Virus record (IMG/VR): IMGVR_UViG_3300024344_000021
Coordinates: 1 to 51,935 of that record
Direction: 5' to 3' (one strand)
Source: a virus
Taxonomy: Duplodnaviria; Caudoviricetes
DNA length: 51,935 nucleotides
Below the pieces are notes generated by a model that did no database searches, was not told the DNA's origin, and saw only the letters and a list, made by a program, of their open reading frames with translations. Both the position numbers and the translations under genes were made by a program. This document shows, piece by piece, positions 1 to 18,133 of the stretch; the stretch's first letter is position 1; each line of letters starts with the position of its first letter.

Positions 1-624
1 GAAACTGGTTAAGATTAGTGTTTAGACCGCCTTGACATGATAAACCAAATGCTTGCATAGTTAATCAAACCTAACTCTGTCATCAGAAATAAATGTTGGA
101 ACAGTCCCTATTAAATTTTCCCTCATACTTTTTAATCCTTTTCTATAATCTTCTAAGGCAAAAGCAGCCATTTGAGGGTTGTCTTTAAATTGATGTGTGT
201 AATATCTAGCTTTAGATAATATTACTGTTTTATATAAATCAGGAAAAACTATAGCATCACTATGTGCAGATAGTTGTGTAGGAAGGTCATAAGCAAAAAA
301 CCAAACCTTATAAACTTTATCGGGTATAGGACTTAATCCAAACTTTCTAGAATCTGGACTTCTAATAACAAGATTAGGTTCTCCTCCTACTGCTTGATCA
401 GCATCATCAGCATTTTCTCTAGCCCTTCTAAAGTCTTTCCATTTTTCTATAGTTACAAATCTTAAATTTTTAGAAACGTAAGGTGCTGATTGACCACTTA
501 CACCCACTGTAGTTAAATAAAAATTATCCCAATCTATAGAGCCATAGTCATTTATTATAGATGAACTAGCAGCTTTTAATTCATACCATCTTGTACCTGC
601 TACAGTATCTACTGATACATTACC
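1..624. repeat. Terminal overlap copy 1 (circular permutation/assembly overlap)
   Basis: 1-624 matches 51312-51935 with about 18 substitutions (manual count) and no indels. Confidence 0.95.
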
Positions 625-831
625 ATACATAGGATCGGTAGCACCGCTTTCACCTGTAGCTAAAAAAGGCCACTGAGGTTCTTCATTAACTATATCTAAG
701 TATGATCTATTAATACAATCTTTAGCGTGTGCTTGAATACCTACAGCACTAGAAAAAGTTGAGGAAGTTAATACTACTTCATTTAACTCCCTTAATAGTT
801 CATTTGTTAATTCTAAAAATGTAGTAGCCAT
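61..831 (-). CDS. Tail tubular protein A / head-tail adaptor
   Basis: 256 aa; N-terminal 'TFLELTNELLRELNE', 'EPQWPF'; located between capsid gene and (across the junction) the tail tubular B gene. Confidence 0.7.
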   Translation of the reverse strand: MATTFLELTNELLRELNEVVLTSSTFSSAVGIQAHAKDCINRSYLDIVNEEPQWPFLATGESGATDPMYGNVSVDTVAGTRWYELKAASSSIINDYGSIDWDNFYLTTVGVSGQSAPYVSKNLRFVTIEKWKDFRRARENADDADQAVGGEPNLVIRSPDSRKFGLSPIPDKVYKVWFFAYDLPTQLSAHSDAIVFPDLYKTVILSKARYYTHQFKDNPQMAAFALEDYRKGLKSMRENLIGTVPTFISDDRVRFD

Positions 832-833
832 AA

Positions 834-1004
834 TTATTTTTTAAGCTCTTTATGATTTACGGGATTATTAGGATTTCTAAAAACACGATCATAATTATCA
901 TCGTATTTCTTTTTATCCTCACCTTTCATATAGGCAGCACGAATTTTAACTTTACCATTAACATTAAATCGCACTGGATTTTTTTCACTTCCTATTTGTG
1001 GCAT
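834..1004 (-). CDS. Hypothetical protein, 56 aa (MPQIGSEKNPVRFNVNGK...YDDNYDRVF...)
   Basis: Manually translated; AAGGA RBS upstream; fills the gap between pqqA and the adaptor gene. Confidence 0.7.
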   Translation of the reverse strand: MPQIGSEKNPVRFNVNGKVKIRAAYMKGEDKKKYDDNYDRVFRNPNNPVNHKELKK

Positions 1005-1015
1005 ACTATATTTCC

Positions 1016-1087
1016 TTATCTATTGCTGTAATACATTGTGATTTCAAAACCAAGTCTAACATTTTCATAAGTAGGTTTAGTCCACAT
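1016..1087 (-). CDS. pqqA: Pyrroloquinoline quinone precursor peptide PqqA ([23 protein letters not shown])
   Basis: 23 aa with the PqqA signature W-x-K-P...R-L-G-F-E-x-T-x-Y (E-x3-Y core); GGAGGT RBS upstream; below the ORF-track length cutoff. Confidence 0.92.
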
Positions 1088-1104
1088 AATAATTACCTCC
1101 AATA

Positions 1105-1135
1105 AAATTAAAGGGGGCATATTTCAGCCCCCCGT
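1105..1135 (-). terminator. Intrinsic terminator after major capsid gene
   Basis: Minus strand GGGGGC-TGAAATAT-GCCCCC followed by TTTAATTTT. Confidence 0.75.
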
Positions 1136-1140
1136 AATAT

Positions 1141-2130
1141 TTAGTCAATGCCGTAGAACGCAGAAACTAATGCCTCTGGACGTAGTACTTTAGCTCCATA
1201 TACATGAAGACCTCGTACTATATCACCAAAGCTATCAGGATCACGAATTACTTCAGTACTAGTAATAGTCTGAGCAGTTGCCGTAGATGACATATGACCT
1301 GCAATACACTTACCTGCTGCATTAGAGGTAGAAGCAATATTGTTAGTCTTGTACATATCAAATCCACGCAACTTACCAGTTGATACTAGTCCGTTACGGA
1401 TTGAACCTTGACCTGCGTTGTAATCAACAGACAGAAGTTTTGAACTGCTTTGTACAAGCTGCTCATAAAACTCTGGGTTTGCTGCGAACCAACGACCTTC
1501 TTCTGGAACATTTTGCTCATCAAGAAGACGAGCCATGTGTGAAAGAACGTCAATAGGATCATGCTCACCAGAAGCAAAACCTATGTCTAGATTACCAGTA
1601 CCATCAAAAGTACCTGCTGCTAGATCAGTTGCGTTGTCAGAACCTAAAATGTGATTAGGGCTAGAAGCTGATACACCTGCAAACATTACTGCAAGTACAC
1701 CTTGATCAAACGCATCTTTAATTGAATAAGCTGCTGAAGATGCAGCAACGTCACGAAAGTTAACGTGTGACATATTAGTTTCAATATCATCTACGATAAA
1801 CTTAAATGCGTTTGCTGTATCAACAACCAAATTAACTTCTTGGTCTGTCAACTTAGTCGCAGTTACGTCTTGTCCCCTTTCATACTGATAAACAGTAATT
1901 TCAGGTTCTTTGATAATTCTTACAGAATCACCGTATGCCGCAATCTCTCCCGCATAATCTGTATTAGTAATTGCTTCTACTACAGATGATTTTCTAAAAA
2001 AGTTTAAAACAGTTTTAGAATAAATTGCAGGTAAGAAATACGAGTTTGTTTGACCCGATACGGAATTTGCAAAGTTTGCATTAGTATCCGTAGACGGTTC
2101 AAAATATTGGTCAGATTGATTATAAGCCAT
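1141..2130 (-). CDS. Major capsid protein (HK97 fold)
   Basis: 329 aa; 'FLPAIYSKTVL', 'ITNTDYAGEI', C-terminal 'RDPDSFGDIVRGLHVYGAKVLRPE'; downstream of scaffold, followed by terminator. Confidence 0.9.
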   Translation of the reverse strand: MAYNQSDQYFEPSTDTNANFANSVSGQTNSYFLPAIYSKTVLNFFRKSSVVEAITNTDYAGEIAAYGDSVRIIKEPEITVYQYERGQDVTATKLTDQEVNLVVDTANAFKFIVDDIETNMSHVNFRDVAASSAAYSIKDAFDQGVLAVMFAGVSASSPNHILGSDNATDLAAGTFDGTGNLDIGFASGEHDPIDVLSHMARLLDEQNVPEEGRWFAANPEFYEQLVQSSSKLLSVDYNAGQGSIRNGLVSTGKLRGFDMYKTNNIASTSNAAGKCIAGHMSSTATAQTITSTEVIRDPDSFGDIVRGLHVYGAKVLRPEALVSAFYGID

Positions 2131-2150
2131 TGTAATATCCTCTCAAAAAC

Positions 2151-3005
2151 TTATTTAGCTATTCTGCCTTCTGCCAACGCTTGTTTGATTTCGTCTTCAT
2201 ACTTATCAAACTGGTCAATAGACATCTTAGCAATTTCACTTTCTGTCCAAACTTTAGGAGCTTTCGCATCCACCGCTGTAGTTTTTGTAGACACCATATC
2301 GGCAGCAGACCTATTCTCCTGTTGCTTGGACTGCCTCTTTTGTGGTGGCTGATTTATTCCCTTTTCCATTTTGTAAAGGTCAATAGCGCGACTAGCTAAA
2401 GTAGCATCACTGTTATTAGCATAAACCCATTTTTGTATATCTTCAGGTTGTTCTTTAGCCCATTCGTGAAAAGCATCATCACCCCGTATATCTTCAAAAT
2501 CTGGATGACGTTCCCTAAGAACTGTTTCAGCTTCTCGTTTCATAATGTCAGCTTCCCGTTCTTGCAAAGCTGTAAGTTGCTGTCTTAGTTCTTCAGTTTG
2601 ATTTTCACTTTGTAAATGAGCTACAGTTTCAACTGTCTCATACAAGTCTGGATTTTTTGCTTTGAACTGCTCTAGTTCTTCTAAAGTTTTAGGAGCCTGA
2701 TACTTAGGTGCTTTTTCAGCAGCCTCCGCAAGAAGCTCTTGTTCCTTTTGTTTAAACTCAGCAATTCTATTGTCGTAATGTTTCTTTAGATCATCATACC
2801 TTTTCTTATAATTTACATCCTTAGAATTTTTAGCAGGGGGCGTTTCTGATTCCTCAGAAGGCGTAGCCTGTTCTTCTTTAGGTCGTGCATAGAATAATCC
2901 ATCGGCATCACCCATTGATGGTTTATCAGGAGTGTGCCAATCTTTCTTTGCATTATAAGGGTTAGGTGCTTTTTCCTCCACAGGATTAGTTTGTGTTTCA
3001 GCCAT
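2151..3005 (-). CDS. Capsid scaffolding protein
   Basis: 284 aa, coiled-coil, 'YKKRYDDLKKH', 'HPDF', C-terminal 'EIKQALAEGRI'; directly upstream of MCP. Confidence 0.8.
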   Translation of the reverse strand: MAETQTNPVEEKAPNPYNAKKDWHTPDKPSMGDADGLFYARPKEEQATPSEESETPPAKNSKDVNYKKRYDDLKKHYDNRIAEFKQKEQELLAEAAEKAPKYQAPKTLEELEQFKAKNPDLYETVETVAHLQSENQTEELRQQLTALQEREADIMKREAETVLRERHPDFEDIRGDDAFHEWAKEQPEDIQKWVYANNSDATLASRAIDLYKMEKGINQPPQKRQSKQQENRSAADMVSTKTTAVDAKAPKVWTESEIAKMSIDQFDKYEDEIKQALAEGRIAK

Positions 3006-3017
3006 AATACTTCCTCC

Positions 3018-3106
3018 ACGGGGCTTGTAAGTTTTAAAAGGTAGCCATTACAATAAATTATTTGTACGGATAATTTATAATGGTGCTTTTACTTCAAGGT
3101 AGCCGT
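3018..3106 (-). promoter_or_regulatory. Candidate symmetric cis-regulatory RNA in scaffold 5' leader
   Basis: ACGG-CTACCTT..AAGCA-CCATTATAAATTAT-loop-ATAATTTATTGTAATGG-CTACCTT..AAGCC-CCGT, directly followed by GGAGG RBS. Confidence 0.55.
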
Positions 3107-4227
3107 TATCGTTGTCTAACATTTAGGCTAGGCATTTGATTAGAAGACATCATTACTTTATTCATGTCATCTTCTAAATCAGTTTCCTCGCCCTTCCTCA
3201 TTAAACCACCATCATAAGCACGTTCAGCTTCATCCATCATACGTTGAAGTCTGTCTGCACCTATTTGATCAGTGGCCTTTCTAGTCATCACAAATTCACC
3301 GTCAGATAATCTGGCAGGTATTGAATCTGAGACTCCCGTTCCCGGCCCTTCAACTTCTCCAGAGCCAGTAAACTCAGAAGCCGTTCCTACAACTTTGTCA
3401 AATATCATACTGAGTTGAGGATCGCCTTCTAAAGCGTTCATTAAATATGTTTGTTCTTCAGGCTGTAAAGCTTCGTTTAATACATAATCAATAAACTCAT
3501 CTTCCATTTGTTCATCTGGAAGTTGTGAAGCTTCTACTGCTGCCATTTCTTCCGGTGGTATATTAGGGTAAGTATCTACTGGAACTTCACCACCCTCTTG
3601 AAATACATCACGGCCTTTAAGAATATCAGCCTGTGTTACTTTTCCATCACCTGTTAAGTCTGGAAACTTACCACCTTCTGCCATCTCTTCTCTATTTACA
3701 GGAAGATCAGCAGTATAAGTTCTACCTTCAAATTCAAAAGTATCTGCTCTTGCTTCTCTTGCTTGTCTAAAAGCATCTTGAAAAGCATTAGCAGAATCAG
3801 TACCTCTTTCATAGGTAGGAAAATCATCAGGGTTAATTCTTTCATCTGGATTTTTTATTTCTACATCTATCTCACCTGCATCAGCAGCTTCAATAATTGT
3901 TTGACCTTTATCAGAATTAGCAGCATATCCAAGTCCTCCTGCTACTACTACTGCTCCTGTCATGTCTTGTGCATAAGCAGCCTGTTTCCTAGTCATAGGT
4001 CTAGTAGCTCTTTGATCAGCAGATAAAGGTTTTAATATTTTTTTAAGAAGTTGAACTAAGGCTCCGGCAGCATAACCCTCTCTTTCAGGAGGAACCATCA
4101 TACCCCCACCCATTTTCTTTTCTTTATCAGGTGCGGATACTGCTACAGTTACAGCAACATCAGGAGCAGCTAGTAAGGCTTCTTTTCTTTTTCTACGTTG
4201 TCTATTTCTTTTAGATTTACTAGCCAT
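3106..4227 (-). CDS. Putative virion protein with xxxGG motifs, EF-hand-like loop and 'GPGTGVSDSIPARLSDGEFV' domain
   Basis: 373 aa; DLTGDGKVTQAD loop; SDSIPARLSDGEFV motif typical of phage tape-measure/internal proteins. Confidence 0.6.
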   Translation of the reverse strand: MASKSKRNRQRRKRKEALLAAPDVAVTVAVSAPDKEKKMGGGMMVPPEREGYAAGALVQLLKKILKPLSADQRATRPMTRKQAAYAQDMTGAVVVAGGLGYAANSDKGQTIIEAADAGEIDVEIKNPDERINPDDFPTYERGTDSANAFQDAFRQAREARADTFEFEGRTYTADLPVNREEMAEGGKFPDLTGDGKVTQADILKGRDVFQEGGEVPVDTYPNIPPEEMAAVEASQLPDEQMEDEFIDYVLNEALQPEEQTYLMNALEGDPQLSMIFDKVVGTASEFTGSGEVEGPGTGVSDSIPARLSDGEFVMTRKATDQIGADRLQRMMDEAERAYDGGLMRKGEETDLEDDMNKVMMSSNQMPSLNVRQR

Positions 4228-4377
4228 TTATTTCCCCTTATGAACTTTCTGCACATCAAAGCTTGCATTTAATGTAGCACCTTTATGTGGCTTAAACTTA
4301 CCAGTATGTTTCATAAGTTTATAGCCACCATTTTTTTGTTTCATCCAATGGTATCCTGCGGGAGCTTTAACTTTCAT
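4228..4377 (-). CDS. Small basic protein, 49 aa (MKVKAPAGYHWMKQ...)
   Basis: Manual translation; stop abuts next start codon. Confidence 0.7.
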   Translation of the reverse strand: MKVKAPAGYHWMKQKNGGYKLMKHTGKFKPHKGATLNASFDVQKVHKGK

Positions 4378-4594
4378 CTTTTGTAAAATCTCTTAGTTTT
4401 AATAAGTCAGTTGCAATTTTATACTTTTCTTCTACTGCTGCTACTTCTGCTATTAGTTTATCTACTTCACCTATTAAGTCAGGATGTTCTGGAACACCTG
4501 TAGCATTAGTTAGATAATTTTCTATATTAACAGCAAGTACTTCTAACTCTGCTGAGTACTTAGAAGCTAAAGCATTAAGTATTAAATCTTTCAT
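4367..4594 (-). CDS. Hypothetical phage protein ('GVPEHPDL' family)
   Basis: 75 aa ORF coupled with neighbours. Confidence 0.7.
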   Translation of the reverse strand: MKDLILNALASKYSAELEVLAVNIENYLTNATGVPEHPDLIGEVDKLIAEVAAVEEKYKIATDLLKLRDFTKDES

Positions 4595-4836
4595 TTTTTT
4601 CTATACTTCCTTGTTTTCTTTGCAATACGTTTGGGTTGTTTTGAGTGTTGCTTTCCTTTTGCAGTATCTTCTCTTTTCTTTCTTGTTGTAGCAGCGTACT
4701 CTTTAGCAGATAAAGACTTTATAGCTTTTTCTGGTAAATATCTTTCACCTGTTTTAGCACTAGGTTTCCCAGACTTAGTACGCCACTTTTGTTTAGTCCA
4801 AGATTTAAGACTTTTTTGTGATTTCTTTAATGCCAT
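4591..4836 (-). CDS. Basic protein, DUF5872-like C-terminal half
   Basis: 'SLKSWTKQKWRT...TGERYLP...KGKQ' motif. Confidence 0.6.
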   Translation of the reverse strand: MALKKSQKSLKSWTKQKWRTKSGKPSAKTGERYLPEKAIKSLSAKEYAATTRKKREDTAKGKQHSKQPKRIAKKTRKYRKK

Positions 4837-4838
4837 AA

Positions 4839-4994
4839 CTAATTAGGTTTAGCAACCTCACCACCCATTGAGTACTTCATTTTGCCACCACCCATCATTT
4901 TCTTTTTATTCATACCACCCATCATCATACCTTTTTTCTTTTTATTCATACCGCCCATCATTTTCTTTTTTCTATCACCATAGTGCTTTGGCAT
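4839..4994 (-). CDS. Lys/Met/Gly-rich peptide, 51 aa (MPKHYGDRKKKMMGGMNKKKKGMMMGGMNKKKMMGGGKMKYSMGGEVAKPN)
   Basis: Manual translation; GAGGA RBS; exactly fills the gap between adjacent genes. Confidence 0.75.
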   Translation of the reverse strand: MPKHYGDRKKKMMGGMNKKKKGMMMGGMNKKKMMGGGKMKYSMGGEVAKPN

Positions 4995-4996
4995 AG

Positions 4997-5299
4997 TTAT
5001 GTCCTCTTAGATTTAGATTTATGTTTATTGCGTAAAACTTCTTTACCTCTTTTAGCTATAGCAGCTTGTTGATTTTTTCCTGCTACTTTAGCTCTTTGTT
5101 CTAATACTGTTAATATTTGTATTTTTCTAGCAAAAGGTTTATTTATATTTTTAACTTTTTTAACAGTATCTCTTGCATCTTGAACTGTAGCATATTTTAT
5201 ACGAACAGTGTCTTTAGGATTTTCATCCGTGTATAAACGTCTTCCAGACCCTTTAGGTTTTTTACCTGTACCTACTTTGGGGTCTTTCTTCTTAGCCAT
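4997..5299 (-). CDS. Basic hypothetical protein ('RRLYTDENPKDT')
   Basis: 100 aa ORF in the late operon. Confidence 0.7.
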   Translation of the reverse strand: MAKKKDPKVGTGKKPKGSGRRLYTDENPKDTVRIKYATVQDARDTVKKVKNINKPFARKIQILTVLEQRAKVAGKNQQAAIAKRGKEVLRNKHKSKSKRT

Positions 5300-5499
5300 T
5301 ATTTATATCCACCGCCTTTTGCTTTGTACTCTTTAGCTAACATTTGAGCTTTTCGAGCACTCCATTGTCCGGGCTTACCACCCTTTGAACCTGCTTTAAT
5401 TCTATTAAATAAATTTTTACGCATTGTAGGTTTGGTATAATTACCTGCTTCATTTACTCTCGATGTTTTTTTCTTGGTTGACTTTTTCTTTGTTGCCAT
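5299..5499 (-). CDS. Basic protein, DUF5872-like N-terminal half
   Basis: 'KGGKPGQWSARKAQMLAKEYKAKGGGYK' motif. Confidence 0.65.
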   Translation of the reverse strand: MATKKKSTKKKTSRVNEAGNYTKPTMRKNLFNRIKAGSKGGKPGQWSARKAQMLAKEYKAKGGGYK

Positions 5500-5570
5500 T
5501 ATACCATTCCTCTTTTATCCATTCATTATAACATATAAATTTTCTTTGAGGATAAGACCAATACTTTCCT

Positions 5571-5804
5571 TCATAGCGAGGAGTCTCTTCCTCTAGCTTC
5601 ACTAATTTCATCCTTCAACTGCTCTAGGCGTTCCAGAGAATTGATCTTCCCCTGACTGCGGTACATTTCCAGTTCCGATGTTGCCCCCACCAGTACCCGT
5701 AACTCCAATGTCTTGAGGTTGTTCAGGTGTTGCTTCAGGGCTTCCCATAACTCCTTGTTGTTCGTTAGGAGTGAGAGGCGTTTCGCCAGTTGCTTGTCCA
5801 ACAT
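5571..5804 (-). CDS. Small post-portal protein, overprinted on the portal 3' end
   Basis: 77 aa helical ORF with 'EMYRSQGKINSLERLEQLKDE', resembling small proteins usually found after podovirus portals. Confidence 0.65.
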   Translation of the reverse strand: MLDKQLAKRLSLLTNNKELWEALKQHLNNLKTLELRVLVGATSELEMYRSQGKINSLERLEQLKDEISEARGRDSSL

Positions 5805-7797
5805 TATTTTGCATCCCTATAATTTGAGCCATAATAGCTGCTTCTTCTGGATCATTGAGTATTTCATCAGGATCAAGATCAAGCGAGTATGCAAGCTCTC
5901 CAATGAGTTTATTAATCTTAACAAACGGAGCAATAGCAGGATTCTGTACACTTTGAAGAAAAGTAGTAAGCCTCTGGCTTCGTACTTCCTTTTGCATAAG
6001 ACTTGCTGTACCAGTAGCCTTAACTTCTAAATCTCCTTCTACGCCCAACTTACTTTCTAAGAATTGCATATTCCATTGAAAGTACGCCTCACCTAACGGC
6101 TTTAAAAGAAAGTCATCAAGATTTTTAATAACAGTCTTTATGTTTAGTGAAGCTGCTCCAAGTAACATCGACATACCTGATGCTGTTCTTGTCATGCTTT
6201 GAACACCTGTTTGTCCATGAGAGTAACTAGGTATTCCTGTTTGTTCGTCTGCAAGTTGTCTAAACTTATCAAACATCATCATGTTTTCTGTAGATGTATT
6301 AGGAAACTTTAAACCATTTATAGCTGTACCCGGAACTCCTGCTTGTCTGCGAAATACTTTGCCCGGATATATTTCCATGCTTTGTCCACCTACAAGGGCA
6401 GTTTCATCTACATCAAATACTAGTGATCCTGATAGTGCTAGATTATCTATTGCCATACGAGCATGACCATTCATAATCTTTTGAGAGTCATCCATGTTTT
6501 CAGCAACACCAATACCAAAAAAACTATAAGGATTCTTTTCATAAGAAAAAGCATGGTAAGGAATACGGTGTGGCGTAAATGGATTTACAACTGCTCTTAG
6601 TACTTTACCATTTGAAATCCAAGCATTAATTTGAACTTCGTCTAAATCATCTACATCATCACTTAATTCCATACCTACTTCTCTAGCGTATTGAGCATCC
6701 ATAATGCCCCAATATTCTAGTACTTCATACTTAGCAGAACCCATGTCAGACATTCTATTATCGTCTTTTAGTTCATACTCATAATCTTTTTCTTCGTAGC
6801 TTGGCCCCATTTCAAGGCACATTCTTATTTGATCTTTATTAAAATAAGGAAGCTTAGATAAACTTCTAAATTGTGAACGATTAAGTTTATGTCTATGAAT
6901 TACATATTCACATTCATCTATGCTAGTTGCATTAGGGTCTGGAAAAAAATCCCATATACTTACAAACTCAATTCGAGGTACACGAACTTGAACAGGATTA
7001 TAAGTACGATCTCCATCTTCATTAGTCCATCTATTTAATGTTTTATTAAAATTAAATGGGCCTTTAACAATTCCTGTTCCAAATAAAGATGCTTCAAACA
7101 AAGAACTTCTTATTTCACTAGCACCATTAGATTCTTCTATTTGATCATGGATTAACTTTTCCATGCGTCTTGCTGCTTTTTGTGCAGGTTTTATTTCTGG
7201 AAGTTGTGGATTTGCAGAAGCTCCTTCAGTTAAGGAGTCTTGAGCTTTTTTATCTAAGTATCCTTCAAACTTACCAGAGCCATAAGTAGCTCCGGGTTTT
7301 AAAGTTTTACCATCTCCTTCATAACCTACATCATAAGGATTTTCTAATTCTTCATCACCTTCGTCACCCATGCTAGTTTCAATTCCCGGCACAGGATTAT
7401 TAGTATCTAGATGTGCAATTTCTGGAATACCTTCTGGTATTTTAGTTTCTGACACACCTATAGGAAACTTATTGCCTCCAAAGATAACATCTACTAATTG
7501 ACCAAAAGCTGCAAGAACTTTTGTTTTAGTAACTTTTACAAATACTCTAGATTTTTCTGATTCTCTAAACTTTACATTTTTAGGATATAGCCCACGATAA
7601 TTATGGTAGGCTGTCATCCATCTATTTTCATCAGCATCTCTAGCTAACTCAGCAGAAGTAAATCTGTCTTGTATAAGTCCAGCAAGTTTATTATTTAAAT
7701 CTTCTTCAAGATTTAAGTTCATACCTTCTTCATCATCTACTGATTCAAAGTAAAGACCATCAGCATTTTGTATTAAAGTATTTTCTTCTTCAGCCAT
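5608..7797 (-). CDS. Portal protein
   Basis: 729 aa; 'SRVFVKVTKTKVLAAFGQ', 'WDFFPDPNA', 'FFGIGVAENM', 'RTASGMSML'; downstream of terminase. Confidence 0.9.
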   Translation of the reverse strand: MAEEENTLIQNADGLYFESVDDEEGMNLNLEEDLNNKLAGLIQDRFTSAELARDADENRWMTAYHNYRGLYPKNVKFRESEKSRVFVKVTKTKVLAAFGQLVDVIFGGNKFPIGVSETKIPEGIPEIAHLDTNNPVPGIETSMGDEGDEELENPYDVGYEGDGKTLKPGATYGSGKFEGYLDKKAQDSLTEGASANPQLPEIKPAQKAARRMEKLIHDQIEESNGASEIRSSLFEASLFGTGIVKGPFNFNKTLNRWTNEDGDRTYNPVQVRVPRIEFVSIWDFFPDPNATSIDECEYVIHRHKLNRSQFRSLSKLPYFNKDQIRMCLEMGPSYEEKDYEYELKDDNRMSDMGSAKYEVLEYWGIMDAQYAREVGMELSDDVDDLDEVQINAWISNGKVLRAVVNPFTPHRIPYHAFSYEKNPYSFFGIGVAENMDDSQKIMNGHARMAIDNLALSGSLVFDVDETALVGGQSMEIYPGKVFRRQAGVPGTAINGLKFPNTSTENMMMFDKFRQLADEQTGIPSYSHGQTGVQSMTRTASGMSMLLGAASLNIKTVIKNLDDFLLKPLGEAYFQWNMQFLESKLGVEGDLEVKATGTASLMQKEVRSQRLTTFLQSVQNPAIAPFVKINKLIGELAYSLDLDPDEILNDPEEAAIMAQIIGMQNNVGQATGETPLTPNEQQGVMGSPEATPEQPQDIGVTGTGGGNIGTGNVPQSGEDQFSGTPRAVEG

Positions 7798-7812
7798 ATT
7801 AAAACCTTAAAC

Positions 7813-7847
7813 AACCACGAACGCCACCAAAGGCAGCGTCCATGATT
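7813..7847 (-). other. G-U-rich 16-bp RNA hairpin upstream of portal (processing site or terminator)
   Basis: AATCATGGACGCTGCC-TTT-GGTGGCGTTCGTGGTT pairs fully only on the minus strand, using 5 G-U pairs. Confidence 0.55.
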
Positions 7848-7860
7848 AAACAGTTATGAT

Positions 7861-8451
7861 CTATTGATCAGGTGTTGTACCCATGTGTAAGAACTGAACT
7901 AAGTAAGTCACAGTCGTTGCTGCCGTAGCAAGATCATTTGCTAATGGCGTAAGACGAGCATGAAGTGTTCTTGCACTAGCTGTATACAAAGTACCTGCTA
8001 TAACAATAGCTTCACTTGTAGCAGGGCCACCAACCACACCTGCTGTAGTAGATGTACTTACAAATTGGTTTGCTGCATGACCATGTGAGTTTTGAATAAT
8101 ATACAAAGGTGCATTAGCTGTCCAAGTTACTGCTGAACCACCATCATCTAAGATAGCTTTTTGATCAATAATTTGACCACCACCTGCTGAAGTACCTAAA
8201 TCAAAATCAACATCATCACCTGAAGCTCCTGCTGTAACAATGTTACCTGCCGGAATAGCAATAAGGTTACGAATAATTGTATCGGCAGGTTGTGTAAAAC
8301 TAACATCAGTATTTGTGTCAGCTGTAACTGCAATAGTTCCTGTAGTTACAGAAGTCCAAGAATGTACCATATTCTCAGCCATCTCTCTTACATCACCTGT
8401 TCTAGCAGAGTTTCTGCCTGTATCTCTAACATTATATACTGGATTTGCCAT
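7861..8451 (-). CDS. Putative capsid decoration/minor structural protein
   Basis: 196 aa Ala/Thr/Gly-rich beta-type sequence between terminase and portal. Confidence 0.5.
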   Translation of the reverse strand: MANPVYNVRDTGRNSARTGDVREMAENMVHSWTSVTTGTIAVTADTNTDVSFTQPADTIIRNLIAIPAGNIVTAGASGDDVDFDLGTSAGGGQIIDQKAILDDGGSAVTWTANAPLYIIQNSHGHAANQFVSTSTTAGVVGGPATSEAIVIAGTLYTASARTLHARLTPLANDLATAATTVTYLVQFLHMGTTPDQ

Positions 8452-8487
8452 TGGTTATTTCCTCGCTTGAGTTATAAAATTATTTTA

Positions 8488-10164
8488 CTAATAGCCAAAT
8501 TCGCTATCAGCCGGGGTATAAGCCTGTTCCAAATGTAGATTTCTTATTCTGCTAAAAGAATCTTGTATTCTTGGTCTAGACATTATTAAGTAGCGCAGAG
8601 CATCATAAGCGTGATCTGGCGCGTGAGTATCAACATCTTCTGGATTATTTTTATCCAGAGGAATACTTTGAAGTTCGCGTATCAGGTTAGGGCAAGTATT
8701 AAATATTTGTAGTCGTGGCCTTCCGCTTTGCTGCACTTTCAAGTATTCATGAATTTGTACTTTACCTTGAACCCTATTCTTGTCAGCCCTTCGTAGTTTA
8801 TGACCTGCACGAATTAAGGACTCCCCTACTGTTGGACCTGTAGTTCCTGTCCTAGCCCACGCTGCCGTGTCTAAAACTCCTTGAACCGAATAAGGATCAT
8901 TTAATTCCATTTGAGTAATCTTTTCTCCTAAGTCTACTCCTGTCAATCCTTTTTGATATAGCTCTCTATAAATTATAAGAGTACCATCTGAAGCGTCTAC
9001 TGCTCCCCATATACAAGCACTCTCAGAAGCATAACCATAGTCAATACCTTTAACACGTTCCCATGATATAGGAATTTCAAAAGGTGTAATAACGTGTACG
9101 TCTTGTTCAAACTCGGTAAAGGCTGCTCCTTCATTAACATCCCAATTACCTTCTAACAGTTGTTTCCTTTGAGTAGGTGGTAATGCTTGTAGCATTTCTT
9201 CATACCTACCATCTTCAGCTAAGTAAGGGTTATCATCTAACCTAGCCGGAATAAACTTTCTACTTAATCTATCTTCACCTACAAACGATTCATTAGGTGG
9301 ATGTGGATCAATATACCTTTTCTTTACCCATGTAGCTCCAACACCACCGGGGTTTGCTGTACACCGCATATAGGGTGTAATCTCAGGGTCGGTCGTTCTT
9401 AGGCGAGAAGCGAGATAGTTCCATCCAAACTCAGTAGGTAAGTGAGTAATCTCGTCAAAACCAATCCAAGAATAGGCTTGGCCTTGATACCGATAGACAT
9501 CGGCATCTCGCTCTAAGAAGCCGAACTCTACTTTGGCTCCGCTTGGGAAGTTCCAAAGTTTTTCAACCTCTTTGTACTTACACCCCGGAAATGCTTTGGG
9601 GTAAAGCTCCCTACTTTTATCTATAAGCTCTCGCAGTTCAGGCATAGACCTTCTAAGTATTAATGCCCTGTGTGCTGCCCTATGTGCAAAACGTAGTGGG
9701 TCAATAAGCATAGCATAAGACTTTCCACCACCTGCTGCACCACCATAAAGTACATCACGCTCTGGTGCTGCTAAGAAGTCTGTCTGTGGCCCATTGTTAG
9801 GCTTGAATATAACATTGTCATCGACTTCTTGCTTTAGAGCTTTAGGTACTTTATCTAGTAAATCTTCAGTAACAACCTTATTAGTTGTTTCTTTTTCTAG
9901 CTTCTTTAAAGTTTCTTTAGAAGCATTTAACGAATCTCGTTTAGCGTTTAATCTTTGTTTTAGTTGTTCTGCTTTCTTTTCTTTGGTTCGTATAGCTCGT
10001 CTTGCTTTAATCTTTGCCTTAGTCTCAGAGTGGTAGTTATACCCTCTACCTTTAGACCCTTTGGGCCTTCCGGTCTTTTTACGGGGAGTACCGTCCTTTT
10101 TAAGTATGAAGTTCCCGTCTTCATCAGTCAGGTAGTTCTGTGGGTTCTTTATCCAATCTTCCAT
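8488..10164 (-). CDS. terL: Terminase large subunit with N-terminal basic extension
   Basis: Walker A 'YGGAAGGGKS', Walker B 'IGFDE', 'TANPGG', nuclease 'GIDYG', 'DHAYDALRY'. Confidence 0.95.
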   Translation of the reverse strand: MEDWIKNPQNYLTDEDGNFILKKDGTPRKKTGRPKGSKGRGYNYHSETKAKIKARRAIRTKEKKAEQLKQRLNAKRDSLNASKETLKKLEKETTNKVVTEDLLDKVPKALKQEVDDNVIFKPNNGPQTDFLAAPERDVLYGGAAGGGKSYAMLIDPLRFAHRAAHRALILRRSMPELRELIDKSRELYPKAFPGCKYKEVEKLWNFPSGAKVEFGFLERDADVYRYQGQAYSWIGFDEITHLPTEFGWNYLASRLRTTDPEITPYMRCTANPGGVGATWVKKRYIDPHPPNESFVGEDRLSRKFIPARLDDNPYLAEDGRYEEMLQALPPTQRKQLLEGNWDVNEGAAFTEFEQDVHVITPFEIPISWERVKGIDYGYASESACIWGAVDASDGTLIIYRELYQKGLTGVDLGEKITQMELNDPYSVQGVLDTAAWARTGTTGPTVGESLIRAGHKLRRADKNRVQGKVQIHEYLKVQQSGRPRLQIFNTCPNLIRELQSIPLDKNNPEDVDTHAPDHAYDALRYLIMSRPRIQDSFSRIRNLHLEQAYTPADSEFGY

Positions 10165-10381
10165 TATCTATAATCTTCTTTAACCCAACGTGACTTAGTG
10201 ACCTTCCTGTCTTATAAGTAACCCATTCGCTACCTTCTCTAAGAGACAGGCCGTTATTCTTTATTAGTTCAGCTACAGTTTTTATAGCATCTATCTCATC
10301 TTGAACAGGCTTTAAAGTTCTGTTGTCTGAATCTAGCTCATACCCAAAAGGTATAGTGCTACTCGTCCTCTGCTTGTACAT
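10124..10381 (-). CDS. Small DNA-binding protein resembling an isolated serine-recombinase DNA-binding domain
   Basis: 'TIPFGYELD...L..V..E...I.......GLSLRE' pattern; no catalytic resolvase domain. Confidence 0.55.
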   Translation of the reverse strand: MYKQRTSSTIPFGYELDSDNRTLKPVQDEIDAIKTVAELIKNNGLSLREGSEWVTYKTGRSLSHVGLKKIIDNGRLDKEPTELPD

Positions 10382-10751
10382 CTATTACAATCTCTTCTTT
10401 GGCAGGAAGTATAAACAAACCTCCCTCTACCTTATGATTAACATCTAAACTTTCTTTTTTGCCAAGACCTGTTCGGTCTAGTATTGTCTGGGCTGCTTGC
10501 ATTCTAACATTAGCTTGTGGTATAGGATCATCAGAGTCCATAATGTTCACAAGCTTCATAGCAGCTTTCGGAGCAGACTGAGCTAAGATACCGGATGCCA
10601 TTTCGATGATCTCATGTTTGAGTGCTTTAGCGACTTGCCAATGCCCGTTCTCAGCATAACCAGAAAGCTCCGCAGCCTTCCTTAGATCACCCCCTGTAGT
10701 CATCAAGTTGTCCAGAAAGTTTTGTTGTTTAGTTGTTAATTCTTTTGCCAT
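10359..10751 (-). CDS. terS: Terminase small subunit
   Basis: Likely start MAKELTTKQQNF; HTH 'AAELSGYA', 'AAQTILDRTG'; upstream of terL. Confidence 0.75.
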   Translation of the reverse strand: MAKELTTKQQNFLDNLMTTGGDLRKAAELSGYAENGHWQVAKALKHEIIEMASGILAQSAPKAAMKLVNIMDSDDPIPQANVRMQAAQTILDRTGLGKKESLDVNHKVEGGLFILPAKEEIVIDVQAEDE

Positions 10752-10758
10752 TTTATAT

Positions 10759-10787
10759 ATTATACACCTGTTTGAGCAATCTGTCAA
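10759..10787 (-). promoter_or_regulatory. Consensus sigma70 promoter driving the late arm (probably leaderless terS mRNA)
   Basis: TTGACA-17-TATAAT; -10 lies 7 nt from the terS ATG. Confidence 0.8.
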
Positions 10788-10836
10788 GTAAAATCGTATT
10801 TAAATTGTAATAAATTGTAACGTAATACGAAAGTAC

Positions 10837-10865
10837 TTGACAAAATGGATTTCTAGGTGTATAAT
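10837..10865 (+). promoter_or_regulatory. Consensus sigma70 promoter
   Basis: TTGACA-17-TATAAT. Confidence 0.75.
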
Positions 10866-10919
10866 AGTATTATGTAGCCCACCGGGGTGCATATATATAT
10901 CTGTAACCTCCCTCCCCCT

Positions 10920-11180
10920 TAAAGTCTACCAGAGACTTTGTAGTTCCGCATCAAACTAGTTAACGACCAAACCCTCTGAAAATGTATATGATTTAGTATA
11001 TATAGGGGGTCTGGGGGGTGGCCTCCTGCCTAGCCCCTCTTACTTCAAAGACTTGTCAAGATTCCATCATCTTTTTTCATCAAAGACTCTGAAAACTTCA
11101 AAGACTTTTAAAGTGCAAGTCTAGTTTACAGAAAATTCCAAAGACTTTTGAAGTTATAGAGTAAACTTTAAAGACTTTGG
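10920..11180. repeat. AAAGACT(T) repeat cluster with G-tract; candidate terminus/pac or origin region
   Basis: AAAGACT at 11047, 11082, 11100, 11140, 11170; inverted pair at 10921-10939; GGGGGTCTGGGGGGTGG at ~11004. Confidence 0.6.
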
Positions 11181-11239
11181 AAATCTTTATAATTCAATCA
11201 CTTCAATAATTATACCTCCCATTTTTATTAGACTCTATA

Positions 11240-11499
11240 AGTATATAGTATTCTCAGAAATTGTCAAGTAAAAAATTTATTTTTTTTCGATTGACATTGT
11301 TGCGGATTTATGCTATTCGCGTATGTGTGTGTGCATATAAATGTATATTGATTTGTTGCATTCTGTTACAATTTAATTGTTGACAAATTCTGAGAATAGT
11401 TTATTATGGTTGACAGTTTCAAATGATTACTTAAAGGACAAACGAACTAAAAAATAATTTCAAAAACTTCTTGACAATAATTATTTCTTAGTATATTAT
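11240..11499. promoter_or_regulatory. Cluster of sigma70 early promoters, including a divergent pair
   Basis: Plus: TTGACA 11380/TATTAT 11402, TTGACA 11471/TATTAT 11494; minus: TTGACA 11267/TATACT 11245; further TTGACA at 11291, 11410, 11502. Confidence 0.7.
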
Positions 11500-11529
11500 G
11501 ATTGACACTTAAAACTTAAAGGTAACAAT

Positions 11530-11715
11530 ATGAATTTAGCACTTAAAAGGGTCTACAAAAAGCCCCAGTCAAGTAGCATCAAAAAAGACTGGTCTAAAAA
11601 ACATACACTAAGTACTGTAAAATTTCACAGTATTAGAAGTGAGAGAAGTCTGCCGAATCAGAGAGTACGCAGAAATGAATTCGGAGAATTCGAGATATAC
11701 GAAGTATACTCATAA
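11530..11715 (+). CDS. Early hypothetical protein
   Basis: 61 aa; AAGGT RBS; stop immediately before hammerhead 1. Confidence 0.65.
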   Translation: MNLALKRVYKKPQSSSIKKDWSKKHTLSTVKFHSIRSERSLPNQRVRRNEFGEFEIYEVYS

Positions 11716-11779
11716 TCCATACTGATGAGTGCCAGATGGTAACTGGCCGAAACCAAAAGGATTTGGTCTATGGAAACCA
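11716..11779 (+). ncRNA. Type I hammerhead ribozyme 1 (cleavage after GUC at 11768)
   Basis: Stem I UCCAUA/UAUGGA; core CUGAUGA; stem II GCCAG/CUGGC; GAAA; stem III CCAAA/UUUGG; UC cleavage site; loop II UGGU can pair with 3' ACCA. Confidence 0.92.
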
Positions 11780-11797
11780 ATAATATAGGTAAAATCT

Positions 11798-11974
11798 ATG
11801 GGTGCAAAATACGCCATAATTGGTAGAGATTTGGATGCGAGATATTTCGATACTTTTAGTGAAGCGCATTCGTTTTTCTTCAAAGAAATATTAGTGAAAA
11901 AACTAAGGAATGGTTATCCGATTAGAAATATTCATAAGGATATGAAAAATGAATATCCTATTATTAAATTATGA
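11798..11974 (+). CDS. Small early protein, 58 aa (MGAKYAIIGRDLDARYF...)
   Basis: Manual translation; AGGT RBS after ribozyme 1. Confidence 0.65.
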   Translation: MGAKYAIIGRDLDARYFDTFSEAHSFFFKEILVKKLRNGYPIRNIHKDMKNEYPIIKL

Positions 11975-11984
11975 GGTGAAGTCT

Positions 11985-12080
11985 ATGTATGCTCCAACAT
12001 GCAAGGTAGTGAATTACAATGGCAATTTGGTCTGGTATCGTAGGGATACTAAAACTGGTGGATGGACTCGTATATCATAA
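11985..12080 (+). CDS. Small early peptide, 31 aa (MYAPTCKVVNYNGNLVWYRRDTKTGGWTRIS)
   Basis: GAGGTG RBS; stop directly before hammerhead 2. Confidence 0.55.
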   Translation: MYAPTCKVVNYNGNLVWYRRDTKTGGWTRIS

Positions 12081-12082
12081 AA

Positions 12083-12144
12083 CCATACTGATGAGACTAG
12101 ATGGTCACTAGTCGAAACCAAACGGACTTGGTATATGGGAACCA
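12083..12144 (+). ncRNA. Type I hammerhead ribozyme 2 (cleavage after GUA at 12133)
   Basis: Stem I CCAUA/UAUGG; CUGAUGA; stem II GACUAG/CUAGUC; GAAA; stem III CCAA/UUGG; UA site; loop II UGGU/3' ACCA conserved. Confidence 0.92.
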
Positions 12145-12162
12145 ATAATACAGGTGAAGACT

Positions 12163-12351
12163 ATGTTTTTTCTAAAGATATTCTTAACCCATCTGGATTT
12201 TAGATGGAGACTAGCAGAGATACGCACTAATTATTTTAGTGGATCGCATGAGAAATATATTGATGTAGTTGATATTGCTAACAATAAAATTGGACTAAAG
12301 AAGAAAATTAGTCATGGTAAGTATACTAGAGTATGGGTAAAAAAAGTTTAA
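12163..12351 (+). CDS. Small early protein
   Basis: ATG after AGGTG RBS following ribozyme 2 (track ORF 12154-12351). Confidence 0.6.
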   Translation: MFFLKIFLTHLDFRWRLAEIRTNYFSGSHEKYIDVVDIANNKIGLKKKISHGKYTRVWVKKV

Positions 12352-12359
12352 GAAAGTAC

Positions 12360-12387
12360 TTGACAAATATTTTAAACGTGGTATTAT
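12360..12387 (+). promoter_or_regulatory. sigma70 promoter (extended -10)
   Basis: TTGACA-16-TATTAT, with TG at 12379-12380 forming a TGn extension. Confidence 0.6.
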
Positions 12388-12507
12388 ACTTACAAGTTTA
12401 AAGGTATAGGAATATGTGCAAACAAAAATTAATTAAACCGGCTGCCTGTTATACACGGCCATACAAACCCATAAAATTTGATATTAATAAATGGATAAGG
12501 AAACATA

Positions 12508-12729
12508 ATGAAAAAAATAACAATAGGTAAACAGCGTAAAGATGGTAAATTTCCAGTGACATACTGGTATCAAGGTGCTGAGAATATGTTTGGTGGTAGG
12601 GATCATCCAAGTGTATTCAGAAAGATACATAGTCTTGATAAGATTGTAGATCATAATCTATATCATGGTGATATTTTTGAGAATCATTCTGGATTACCAA
12701 ATAACTATTTTAATTTCAAGAGATCATAG
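12508..12729 (+). CDS. Early hypothetical protein
   Basis: 73 aa; AAGGA RBS. Confidence 0.65.
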   Translation: MKKITIGKQRKDGKFPVTYWYQGAENMFGGRDHPSVFRKIHSLDKIVDHNLYHGDIFENHSGLPNNYFNFKRS

Positions 12730-12730
12730 C

Positions 12731-13459
12731 ATGATTAAAATATCTAAGACAAGTAAACTCGGCTGCCATTCGTGGAGTTTACAAGCACTGACTACGTGTC
12801 CTGCTGCTAGGAAACAAGATGGTAGCTTAGTCGATGCCTGTAAAGGATGCTATGCTAGGGGTGGGAACTATAGATTCCCTAACGTAAAAGCACCACGAAT
12901 CCATAATCAAGAGGATTGGAAACGTGATGGATGGGTAGATGATATGGTATCTGAATTGGATAATCACAGATACTTTCGATGGTTTGATAGTGGTGATATG
13001 TATCATATCAAACTAGCAGAGAAAATCTATCAAGTGATGAAGCGTACTCAATGGGTTAAACATTGGTTACCTACTAGACAGTACAAGTTTAGTAAGTTTA
13101 AAGATGTAATTGAACGAATGAATCAACTAGACAATGTAGTGGTTAGACTGTCAAGTGATTCGGTTCAAGGTAAGAAAGTGAATTTCAGTACATGGAGATT
13201 GAATAGTATCAAGACTAGTAGCACAATACTACCAAAAGATACTGATCATGTATTCTCTAGTGATCATACTGGAGTTAAGGTAGATAAGAGTCATGTAGTA
13301 TGTAGGGCATATGAGAACGATGGTAAATGCGGATCATGTAGAGAATGTTGGAATAAAGATACGCACACTATAGCCTATGTAGCGCATGGTAAATCAATGG
13401 GTAAAGTCTTAAAGGATATAAACGAATTAGGCTATACAAGGTTAACTATGGTGGGATAA
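12731..13459 (+). CDS. GP88-like Cys-rich (radical-SAM-like/Fe-S) protein
   Basis: 'TCP...ACKGCYA', 'FRWFDSGD', 'HWLPTR', 'VVRLS', C-terminal 'C.A......CGSCRECW'. Confidence 0.75.
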   Translation: MIKISKTSKLGCHSWSLQALTTCPAARKQDGSLVDACKGCYARGGNYRFPNVKAPRIHNQEDWKRDGWVDDMVSELDNHRYFRWFDSGDMYHIKLAEKIYQVMKRTQWVKHWLPTRQYKFSKFKDVIERMNQLDNVVVRLSSDSVQGKKVNFSTWRLNSIKTSSTILPKDTDHVFSSDHTGVKVDKSHVVCRAYENDGKCGSCRECWNKDTHTIAYVAHGKSMGKVLKDINELGYTRLTMVG

Positions 13460-13614
13460 TGTTAGACGATTTAAAGTGTAGTGATTGTAAGAAAAATAAT
13501 ATAATAGTTTATAGAGAAGATAAGTATTACTGTGCAAAATGTTACACTAAATATTTAAAACAGTTACATCCGACAATTAAACAGACTATATTTAGAGGTG
13601 CTATGAATGGATGA
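13459..13614 (+). CDS. Small Cys4 zinc-ribbon protein, 51 aa
   Basis: Manual translation: CSDC...YCAKCY; coupled start (TAATG). Confidence 0.6.
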   Translation: MLDDLKCSDCKKNNIIVYREDKYYCAKCYTKYLKQLHPTIKQTIFRGAMNG

Positions 13615-13897
13615 TATTCGACAAACAATAAAATATAATCATGCTAACTGGTCTGGTGGTGAATCTCTTTTGACCGTAGGCACTGAGAAATTCTGGAGTG
13701 ATCACGGGTATAATGGGAGTTATAAACTTCTTAATGATGAGACTGCTACTGTCAAGGTGTTAGATGATGGTAGTGAGATAGCTGATTTACTAGTCTTTCA
13801 TGATGGTTCTGGATGGTATTGTTATGATGGTGGAGTAGCTAGACTAGCAGAGAATCCTATCGTAGCAGCACTACAAGTAATACATAATACATACTAA
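13607..13897 (+). CDS. Hypothetical protein
   Basis: 96 aa; GAGGTG RBS. Confidence 0.65.
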   Translation: MDDIRQTIKYNHANWSGGESLLTVGTEKFWSDHGYNGSYKLLNDETATVKVLDDGSEIADLLVFHDGSGWYCYDGGVARLAENPIVAALQVIHNTY

Positions 13898-13909
13898 GAG
13901 GGTAACACT

Positions 13910-14182
13910 ATGAGTAATGTAGTTGATATAAAAAAGGCTAAGAAAATCAAGAAGATAGCAGATGGTATAACTTCTGATGAGGCTCAAAGGTTATATGATG
14001 AAATGAAAGATGAAATTTTAACCATTGAATCTACCCTAGCAGAAACATTTGACAAATTAAATCCAAGCATGATAGGTGCTGCTGTAGCTATGCACATATT
14101 TACTAAGAGAATATGTGAGGTTTCAGGGTACTCAATGGAGTATATTCAAAAAGGATCAGAGTTTTATTATAAGAGTGAATGA
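13910..14182 (+). CDS. Hypothetical protein
   Basis: 90 aa; GAGGGT RBS. Confidence 0.65.
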   Translation: MSNVVDIKKAKKIKKIADGITSDEAQRLYDEMKDEILTIESTLAETFDKLNPSMIGAAVAMHIFTKRICEVSGYSMEYIQKGSEFYYKSE

Positions 14183-14201
14183 AACAAATTGTAACAAGTG
14201 C

Positions 14202-14230
14202 TTTACATTAATCGTAATCTATGCTACTAT
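14202..14230 (+). promoter_or_regulatory. sigma70-like promoter
   Basis: TTTACA-17-TACTAT, preceded by AAATTGTAAC motif. Confidence 0.5.
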
Positions 14231-14269
14231 AGATTATATAATCTTTTAAGTATTAACAAAGGTATTATT

Positions 14270-14476
14270 ATGAACATTGATTTAAATCCAACTAATGATA
14301 ATCAATTATTAGTTGAAGTTAAAAAGGTTTATGGAGTTGATAGAGTTTATCCTGCTTGTAGTAGGTCACTTGCACTATCGAAGTTGATAGGTAAAAAGAC
14401 TTTCAGTAAGCAAGAAGTCAACATTATCAGGGAAGAACTGGGTTACATTCTTAAACATAAAACCTATGAGGTGTAA
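14270..14476 (+). CDS. Hypothetical protein ('VKKVYGVDRVYPAC')
   Basis: Likely start MNIDLN after AAGGT. Confidence 0.65.
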   Translation: MNIDLNPTNDNQLLVEVKKVYGVDRVYPACSRSLALSKLIGKKTFSKQEVNIIREELGYILKHKTYEV

Positions 14477-14477
14477 G

Positions 14478-15453: not shown

Positions 15454-15454
15454 A

Positions 15455-15528: not shown

Positions 15529-15534
15529 ATTTTA

Positions 15535-15609: not shown

Positions 15610-15634
15610 CCAGTTTTATTTTAAGGAGCGTGAT

Positions 15635-18131: not shown

Positions 18132-18133
18132 CA

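Follow-up and report, generated by a model that had tools for sequence, protein, structure and literature searches.

The window analyzed here is a 51,935-base stretch of viral DNA that makes up the entire IMG/VR record IMGVR_UViG_3300024344_000021 (about 99% complete according to CheckV), and our subject is a very short open reading frame (ORF) behind its major capsid protein gene. Judged by its sequence, this ORF is almost certainly a genuine pqqA, the gene for the precursor peptide of the cofactor pyrroloquinoline quinone (PQQ). It lies on the minus strand at 1016..1087 and consists of 23 codons and a TAA stop (ATG at 1087-1085, TAA at 1018-1016). A ribosome-binding site, GGAGGT, can be read from the sequence on the same strand at 1095..1100, 7 nt upstream of the ATG. 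With a start, ribosome-binding site, and stop of its own, and a frame that is kept in relatives, pqqA forms its own translation unit. A longer, 34-amino-acid (aa) reading of the ORF was rejected, as its start falls within the terminator hairpin described next and has no ribosome-binding site.

The upstream neighbor of pqqA is the major capsid protein gene (329 aa, 1141..2130, minus strand), which was identified by capsid comparison. Between the capsid stop (1141) and pqqA stands a hairpin resembling an intrinsic terminator with a T-rich tail (1102..1133, minus strand; stem 1133..1112), with seven pairs, six of them G-C, a loop of eight, and the tail TTAATTTTAT. A similar hairpin occurs in all 16 relatives for which the sequence was displayed, whether or not they carry pqqA. 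The downstream neighbor is a conserved small ORF of 56 aa (MPQIGSEKNPVRF..., 834..1004, minus strand), whose homologs follow directly after the capsid terminator in most relatives and whose ribosome-binding site overlaps the pqqA stop codon in the window; it matched no PHROG family. Beyond it, at 61..831 on the minus strand, a 256-aa tail protein gene (phrog_10775 tail protein, E 5.2e-70) marks the far border of what proved to be a variable slot.

Periplasmic dehydrogenases that oxidize methanol, other alcohols, and sugars use PQQ as their cofactor. The window peptide matched two PqqA profiles along their whole length, scoring 44.2 bits with the equivalog family TIGR02107 (cut-off 20, E 1.1e-11, profile positions 1-21 of 21) and 39.4 bits with PF08042 (cut-off 21.1, E 5.4e-10, profile positions 1-19 of 19). 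The cross-link pair is present as Glu15-Ile-Thr-Met-Tyr19, and the Glu-x3-Tyr arrangement is kept in both phage alleles described below and in the bacterial relatives. A degenerate pattern built on the conserved residues, searched in frame, had a single match in the window and none in 100 shuffles, and 1016..1087 was the sole PqqA match in the record. These results bear out the first-pass annotation of this DNA, which had named an unannotated 23-aa PqqA with a GGAGGT site after the capsid-gene terminator: the coordinates agree, the profile search it had proposed gave scores about twice the cut-off with both profiles, and the Glu and Tyr whose conservation it had singled out stand in both alleles of the related phages.

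The gene sits inside a bona fide viral genome, flanked by the capsid gene and the tail protein gene. The minus strand of the window encodes the small and large terminase subunits, a portal protein, a conserved phrog_13678 protein, the capsid protein, and the tail protein, and the plus strand encodes a primase-helicase, DNA polymerase A, endonuclease I, and both ribonucleotide reductase subunits. The window carries one tRNA-Cys, and an Rfam search of it found tRNA only; GC content ranges from 0.31 to 0.42 in 2-kb windows. This tailed phage is a podovirus, and it is related to the HMO-2011-type phages by its capsid identities, which are 59.7% to Pelagibacter phage HTVC115P and 37-49% to Puniceispirillum phage HMO-2011, Roseobacter CRP phages, and other listed phages. 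The host of HMO-2011-type subgroup X, with a G+C content of 34.4-39.0%, has been left open in a paper on these phages, and its main text does not mention PQQ, cytochrome, or monooxygenase (PMC9038755). Our literature search, which excluded supplements, found no paper pairing 'HMO-2011' with 'pyrroloquinoline'.

Genes for the enzymes that act on PqqA were not found beside it. Our searches detected no pqqE, pqqD, pqqC, or pqqB in the 99%-complete window (pqqF was not among the genes searched), in agreement with the earlier remark that none was visible. Three bacterial genomes served as positive controls for the pqqB and pqqC searches, and both genes were recovered there. No viral dehydrogenase gene was seen among the window ORFs scanned.

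Presence of pqqA varied among close relatives of the phage, which we defined as the best 80 of at least 600 IMG/VR stretches from a capsid search (86-97% identity). The capsid stop and the 256-aa tail protein gene were both present in 72 of the 80, at a spacing of 217-972 nt, and six-frame scans of these 72 whole slots found a PqqA-like ORF in six. One of them (L003; loci are cited by our own numbers) encodes a peptide equal to that of the window, which we term allele A. The other five (L004, L006, L022, L055, and L064) encode allele B, a peptide of 24 residues, MKWSKPTYQK[I/L]RLGFEVTMYFKQV, which scored 38.6 bits with TIGR02107, above the cut-off. The GGAGGT of the window is identical in L003, and allele B copies have GGAGAA at the same position. 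Both alleles occupy the same site, with the terminator's T-tail on one side and the conserved 56-aa ORF's ribosome-binding site on the other, and in empty slots (e.g., L025) the terminator is joined straight to that ribosome-binding site.

A cruder classification of slot state, covering all 80 loci and recognizing the small-ORF start by a regular expression, counted 51 empty slots, six with pqqA, three with a Cys-rich mini-ORF, and one with another mini-ORF; the small-ORF start went unrecognized by the regular expression in 16 loci, and three were too short. The Cys-rich mini-ORF of L010, L018, and L024 has its own ribosome-binding site and lies exactly where pqqA sits, with the peptides MCECKNCTCK, MCECKHCTCK, or a 16-residue form, MSCTNKSCECKHCTCK. 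In a tree built from capsid DNA with FastTree (rooted at the midpoint; support values not inspected), the window and L003 group together in one small clade that adjoins the clade of the three Cys-mini-ORF loci, and allele B falls in another clade, in two groups interleaved with empty-slot loci. This placement of the alleles implies that pqqA was gained at least twice, or else gained once, lost several times, and replaced once. Since only six of 72 close relatives carry it, pqqA is an accessory and dispensable gene in this phage group.

The closest counterparts of the window peptide were found in marine Gammaproteobacteria. We searched one-genome-per-species bacterial contigs with a window-type pattern, W-T-K-P-x-Y-E-x-[I/V]-R-L-G-F-E-[I/V]-T-M-Y, and obtained 24 bacterial stretches, nearly all labelled Gammaproteobacteria, Pseudomonadales, Pseudohongiella, or Pseudohongiellaceae; in most of them a PqqB-sized ORF follows pqqA. 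Three of the peptides (L220, L222, and L227) are identical to the window peptide at 22 of 23 residues, the single difference being Phe20 in the bacterium and Tyr20 in the phage. At the DNA level, the window pqqA shares 65/69 nt with L220, 63/69 nt with L227, and 58/69 nt with L222. L220 comes from a single-cell genome labelled uncultured Pseudohongiella, and its locus has a GC content of 0.43. When positions 1-20000 of the window were compared with these genomes by BLAST, the match to L220's genome had 95% identity across 1015-1090 (76 nt) and the flanks were unmatched; the sequence common to phage and bacterium is exactly the gene.

The genomes that hold L220, L227, and L211 (G001, G002, and G003; 2.0-2.5 Mb) have pqqB and pqqC on the contig that carries pqqA; the bacterial pqqA is the first gene of a pqq operon, and pqqB lies 190 nt beyond it. 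Their labels are one uncultured Pseudohongiella and two Gammaproteobacteria. The PQQ alcohol dehydrogenase family matched 35-52 stretches per genome in these three, with two to four per genome above the curated cut-off, and their quinoprotein gene load is unusually high for the genome size. Because the closest chromosomal pqqA, with 95% DNA identity, lies in a genome with pqqB and pqqC, the host is very probably a PQQ-making proteobacterium, as the first-pass annotation had expected.

Allele B is similar to another bacterial type, MWTKP[S/T]YQKIRLGFEVTMYFK[A/S/T]V, which occurs in Halieaceae-, Gammaproteobacteria-, and Alteromonadaceae-labelled records and in one Pseudohongiella-labelled record; DNA identity between the two is only 51-54/69 nt. 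As a control we took the commonest viral type (...EMRFGFEVTMYV...), for which there were at least 120 bacterial matches; among the 80 rows listed for it, 63 had Methylophilaceae-type names and none had Pseudohongiella or Halieaceae names. These patterns suggest that peptide type tracks host taxon, and the window pqqA appears to derive from a marine gammaproteobacterium rather than from a methylotroph. DNA comparison of the window with five candidate genomes also gave weaker matches, namely the tRNA-Cys region (75-78%), the monooxygenase gene described below (65-72%), and short stretches of 69-81% in one genome. The tRNA-Cys (GCA; 15455-15528, plus strand) is 75-78% identical to presumed tRNA genes in three candidate genomes and carries no host signal.

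Codon differences in pqqA were mostly silent. The window and L003 differ by two synonymous and no non-synonymous changes, and allele B copies differ among themselves by up to four synonymous changes and one conservative non-synonymous change (I/L). Against the bacterial genes, we counted two synonymous and one non-synonymous difference for L220, four and one for L227, seven and two for L211, and eight and one for L222. Within alleles, changes are almost all synonymous, and the counts point one way.

Stand-alone pqqA recurs widely in other viruses. An in-frame PqqA pattern matched at least 120 IMG/VR contigs, compared with two for a version with one extra N that served as an out-of-frame control. 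All of the 120 matched viral ORFs have 23-25 codons, start with Met, and end four to five codons past the Tyr; they encode 63 distinct peptides, and ten are of the window type. Neither PqqC nor PqqE scored above cut-off in any of the first 50 of these (at least 120) pqqA-bearing IMG/VR records. A phage-type pqqA, ending FKQV, was also seen on a 5-kb contig from a metagenome-assembled genome (MAG) labelled Verrucomicrobiales (L215).

Among 50,697 GenBank phage records, a tblastn search with the peptide found 12, of which we examined seven. PqqA exceeded the TIGR02107 cut-off in all six phage records among these: Venkman, MEP402, P19250A, MEP301, Melnitz, and MW202481 (L229-L234; GenBank MT375522, OP830907, KX815270, MW452941, MZ577097, and MW202481), which are five cultured methylophages and one uncultured podovirus. 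The gene is unannotated in all six, and in Melnitz and MW202481 a hypothetical coding sequence is called on the opposite strand over pqqA. We set aside the two matches named 'Acinetobacter phage MD-2021a' when assessing phage pqqA; the one record examined is cellular-looking. That record (L235, CAKLQF020000010) is 144 kb long, holds a pqqA-pqqBCDE operon, a polyphosphate kinase, and a 5'-nucleotidase, and looks like bacterial DNA filed as phage.

Phage pqqA is already published as a kind of gene, as well as being very common in viral contigs. It was described in the Lake Baikal viral population VP_266 (Coutinho et al. 2020, Microbiome, PMC7678222), so that the first-pass annotation was right to be cautious about prior publication, and pqqA is among the viral genes listed in a 2026 reservoir study (PMC13188868). 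The main texts of the Melnitz paper (PMC9004378) and of the paper on MEP/OM43 phages (PMC10580990) do not mention a phage pqqA. What is new here is the different phage group, the likely non-methylotroph gammaproteobacterial host, and the swap-in slot with two alleles.

The window encodes a further protein with a possible bearing on periplasmic oxidation, an exported cytochrome c-copper monooxygenase of 428 aa (28293-29579, minus strand) with a signal-peptide-like N-terminus and a CVVCH haem-c motif. The protein gave weak cytochrome c matches. Ten residues (C34, C37, H38, M70, H185, H186, H232, H312, H314, and M397) are invariant across 36 diverse relatives, among which Cu2_monoox_C matched in 14 and a cytochrome c family in 21. 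A structure model built from this 36-relative diverse alignment was confident, with a pLDDT of 88.5 and a pTM of 0.85; an earlier model from 29 close sequences (pLDDT 46.9) was discarded. The best matches of the model in the PDB were dopamine beta-hydroxylase (DBH) and peptidylglycine alpha-hydroxylating monooxygenase (PHM), with E about 5e-13 and probability 1.00. The protein joins a cytochrome c domain (CVVCH, Met70) to a PHM/DBH-like two-copper monooxygenase (ligands H185, H186, H232, H312, H314, M397). The family is large: one search gave 2,557 proteins at E <= 1e-10, and another gave 8,584 cluster representatives at E <= 0.001. Each of the five candidate bacterial genomes holds one to six paralogs with 65-72% DNA identity to the window gene. 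Relatives were found in 219 IMG/VR stretches and in none of the GenBank phage records.

In some phages this gene and pqqA lie together. We kept 80 IMG/VR monooxygenase loci of the 219 stretches, and 14 of them (L421-L424, L427-L429, L432, L433, L440, L442-L444, and L454) show a cassette in which the ortholog is followed by a paralog of 26-27% identity and then by a gammaproteobacterial-type pqqA; L091 has the same order. In L421-L423, a homolog of window ORF 27620-28096 comes next after the cassette, from which we conclude that some cassette phages hold pqqA at the monooxygenase site rather than behind the capsid gene. The flanking genes of two cassette contigs had strong PHROG matches, including tail-fibre and baseplate families. 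In G005:C57 (L258:16632-18352), two small lipoprotein-like ORFs separate the ortholog from the pqqA that follows it. This 335-kb contig (L258, L259) belongs to a MAG labelled Neomarinimicrobiota, and a clamp loader, ThyX, ferredoxin, and PhoH were noted by eye near its orphan pqqA. The G005 genome has no PqqC match; given this and the phage-like neighbors, the contig is probably phage DNA binned with a bacterium.

We consider it likely that the window gene is a functional, host-derived pqqA that acts as an auxiliary metabolic gene of a lytic-type marine podovirus, supplying a consumed substrate to host enzymes. This reading starts from the observed PqqA identity, viral context, absence of pqqB-E, closeness to bacterial pqqA, conservation, and pattern of presence and absence, and from these we infer translation, processing to PQQ, and a benefit to the phage. 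The infected cell would translate the 23-residue peptide, the host chaperone PqqD would bind its N-terminal part, and host PqqE would make the Glu15-Tyr19 cross-link; host PqqB, PqqC, and a protease would then complete PQQ, which would be loaded onto periplasmic quinoprotein dehydrogenases. In this pathway one PqqA is destroyed per PQQ and the enzymes are reused, so that the phage would supply the single consumable. Because one peptide is consumed per cofactor, substrate supply to host enzymes is the most economical reading. PqqA would also be the first component to run out if host gene expression fails in the infected cell, and the phage copy could keep PQQ-dependent energy going until lysis. 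Published work is consistent with parts of this scheme: the N-terminal leader of PqqA binds PqqD with a Kd of 0.39 uM, and Glu and Tyr are delivered to PqqE (PMC10906245); in Gluconobacter, PQQ rose when pqqA alone was overexpressed (cited in PMC7936290); and methylotrophs have several pqqA copies that differ in expression (PMC9851590).

Several points weigh against this reading. The gene lies after the terminator and would be reached only by read-through from the capsid transcript unless there is an unrecognized promoter, which makes its expression level uncertain; the description of the locus as highly expressed in the first-pass annotation is doubtful for the same reason, pqqA being downstream of a strong-looking terminator. 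With late expression, a cofactor pathway of several steps would have little time to bring a return, and an increase in PQQ or in respiration is itself something that we infer. With pqqA in six of 72 close relatives, any benefit could be slight or depend on conditions. The host is deduced from one 76-nt match, and similar base composition may lie behind part of the DNA likeness. When we searched 251 genomes of the candidate host family for capsids, only distant relatives turned up, in three genomes and at 29-48% identity over the matched pieces, so that no prophage or co-sorted phage in that set backs the host link; the rest of the window gave no other close DNA match to the five candidate genomes, and SAR11 is the host of the nearest cultured phage relatives. 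Finally, the counts of synonymous changes are small, and the search pattern itself fixes nine residues, so conservation at those positions among the 120 viral ORFs is not independent evidence.

Other explanations account for some of the same observations. That the ORF is very short and was missed by automatic gene callers would fit a chance ORF or an untranslated piece of the terminator or leader; this idea is refuted as far as sequence can show by profile E-values of 1e-10 to 1e-11, the lack of pattern matches in 100 shuffles, a strong ribosome-binding site at the right spacing, and a frame conserved with synonymous changes, and we give it practically no credence. A near-neutral passenger, that is a scrap of host DNA in a recombination-prone slot, translated or not and bringing the phage no benefit, deserves more thought, as pqqA is present in just six of 72 relatives and the same slot is otherwise empty (51), filled by a Cys-rich mini-ORF (3), or filled by another mini-ORF (1); morons are also common after capsid terminators. 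Yet the insert is exactly one ORF with its own ribosome-binding site and no flanking host DNA, two different alleles fill the same slot in separate capsid clades, nearly all changes are synonymous, and orphan pqqA is kept by many unrelated phage lineages, which together make a mere passenger unlikely.

The peptide might instead be a decoy or inhibitor that occupies host PqqD or PqqE without yielding PQQ and so stops cofactor synthesis, an alternative raised in the first-pass annotation. A lone precursor without enzymes could in principle compete in this way, and the one residue that distinguishes the phage peptide from its closest bacterial counterpart (Tyr20 in place of Phe20) adjoins the cross-linked Tyr19. 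We regard a decoy as very unlikely, because the peptide is nearly identical to that of the candidate host (22 of 23 residues) and keeps both Glu15 and Tyr19; in addition, its equivalog score is as high as those of the bacterial and methylophage peptides tested (34.0-48.6 bits), and nothing suggests that a lytic phage would gain from a lower host energy supply. It is also rather improbable that pqqA serves a viral periplasmic redox module, as the companion of the cytochrome c-copper monooxygenase, rather than general respiration, with electrons passing from a PQQ dehydrogenase through haem c to the copper oxygenase. The window encodes the monooxygenase. Of the 80 kept IMG/VR loci with its ortholog, 14 have pqqA within about 1.2-1.4 kb downstream on the same strand, past the second paralog, and L091 and G005:C57 show the same linkage. 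In the window, however, 27 kb separate the two genes, and auxiliary genes often cluster for non-functional reasons. In three candidate host genomes, homologs of the monooxygenase do not regularly neighbor PQQ dehydrogenase genes (coordinates compared by eye); the methylophage pqqA copies lack a monooxygenase neighbor, and one of the 120 pqqA loci holds one.

Supply of PqqA to the host's own enzymes remains our preferred reading, and a broader scenario can be put forward only tentatively. Closely related ocean podoviruses might swap host-matched pqqA alleles in and out of a mini-gene slot after the capsid terminator. The allele would then reveal the host of this HMO-2011-related subgroup, which has no cultured host, as a Pseudohongiella- or Halieaceae-like gammaproteobacterium with a small genome rich in PQQ-dehydrogenase family matches. 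In infected cells, pqqA and the monooxygenase, which share one cassette in other phages, might together rewire periplasmic PQQ-linked oxidation of dissolved organic matter, well beyond methylotrophs.

The proposed role resembles that of several known systems. In VP_266, too, a stand-alone viral pqqA was proposed as an auxiliary gene that boosts PQQ for host dehydrogenases (PMC7678222), but that virus is from freshwater, has a predicted methylotroph host, and encodes a methanol dehydrogenase, whereas the window is a marine podovirus with a gammaproteobacterial-type peptide. The methylophages Venkman, MEP401/402, MEP301, P19250A, and Melnitz likewise carry an orphan pqqA of 23-24 codons with its own ribosome-binding site. 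Their peptides (34-41 bits with TIGR02107) are about 52-57% identical to that of the window and of the type found in Methylophilaceae-named bacteria, and their genes lie in early or recombination regions or beside tRNAs, in contrast to the window gene, which stands behind the capsid gene in the late structural run. The Pseudohongiella-labelled chromosomal genes (L220, L227, and L222) share 22 of 23 residues with the phage peptide but head a pqq operon, whereas the phage copy stands alone and has Tyr20 for Phe20. As a stand-alone copy apart from pqqB-E that may add to substrate supply, the window gene also recalls the extra pqqA copies of methylotrophs, one strain of which has five, three of them alone, with differing expression levels (PMC9851590); those copies are chromosomal and host-regulated, whereas the window copy is viral and part of the late structural run.

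Cyanophage psbA offers an analogy from an unrelated protein and pathway, in which the phage carries just the fast-consumed part of a host energy system and the host supplies the rest; the function of psbA in infection has been demonstrated experimentally, whereas that of phage pqqA is proposed. If viral control of PQQ supply is real, it would tie infection by phages to the marine turnover of small organic compounds. Our results extend phage pqqA from the phages of methylotrophs to a very abundant group of marine podoviruses with likely gammaproteobacterial hosts, in which it is a swap-in accessory. As its alleles resemble different bacterial lineages, this 69-nt gene could serve as a cheap host marker for uncultured phages. 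Phage annotation systematically overlooks genes of 23 codons, as it did in all five of the cultured methylophage records that we examined.

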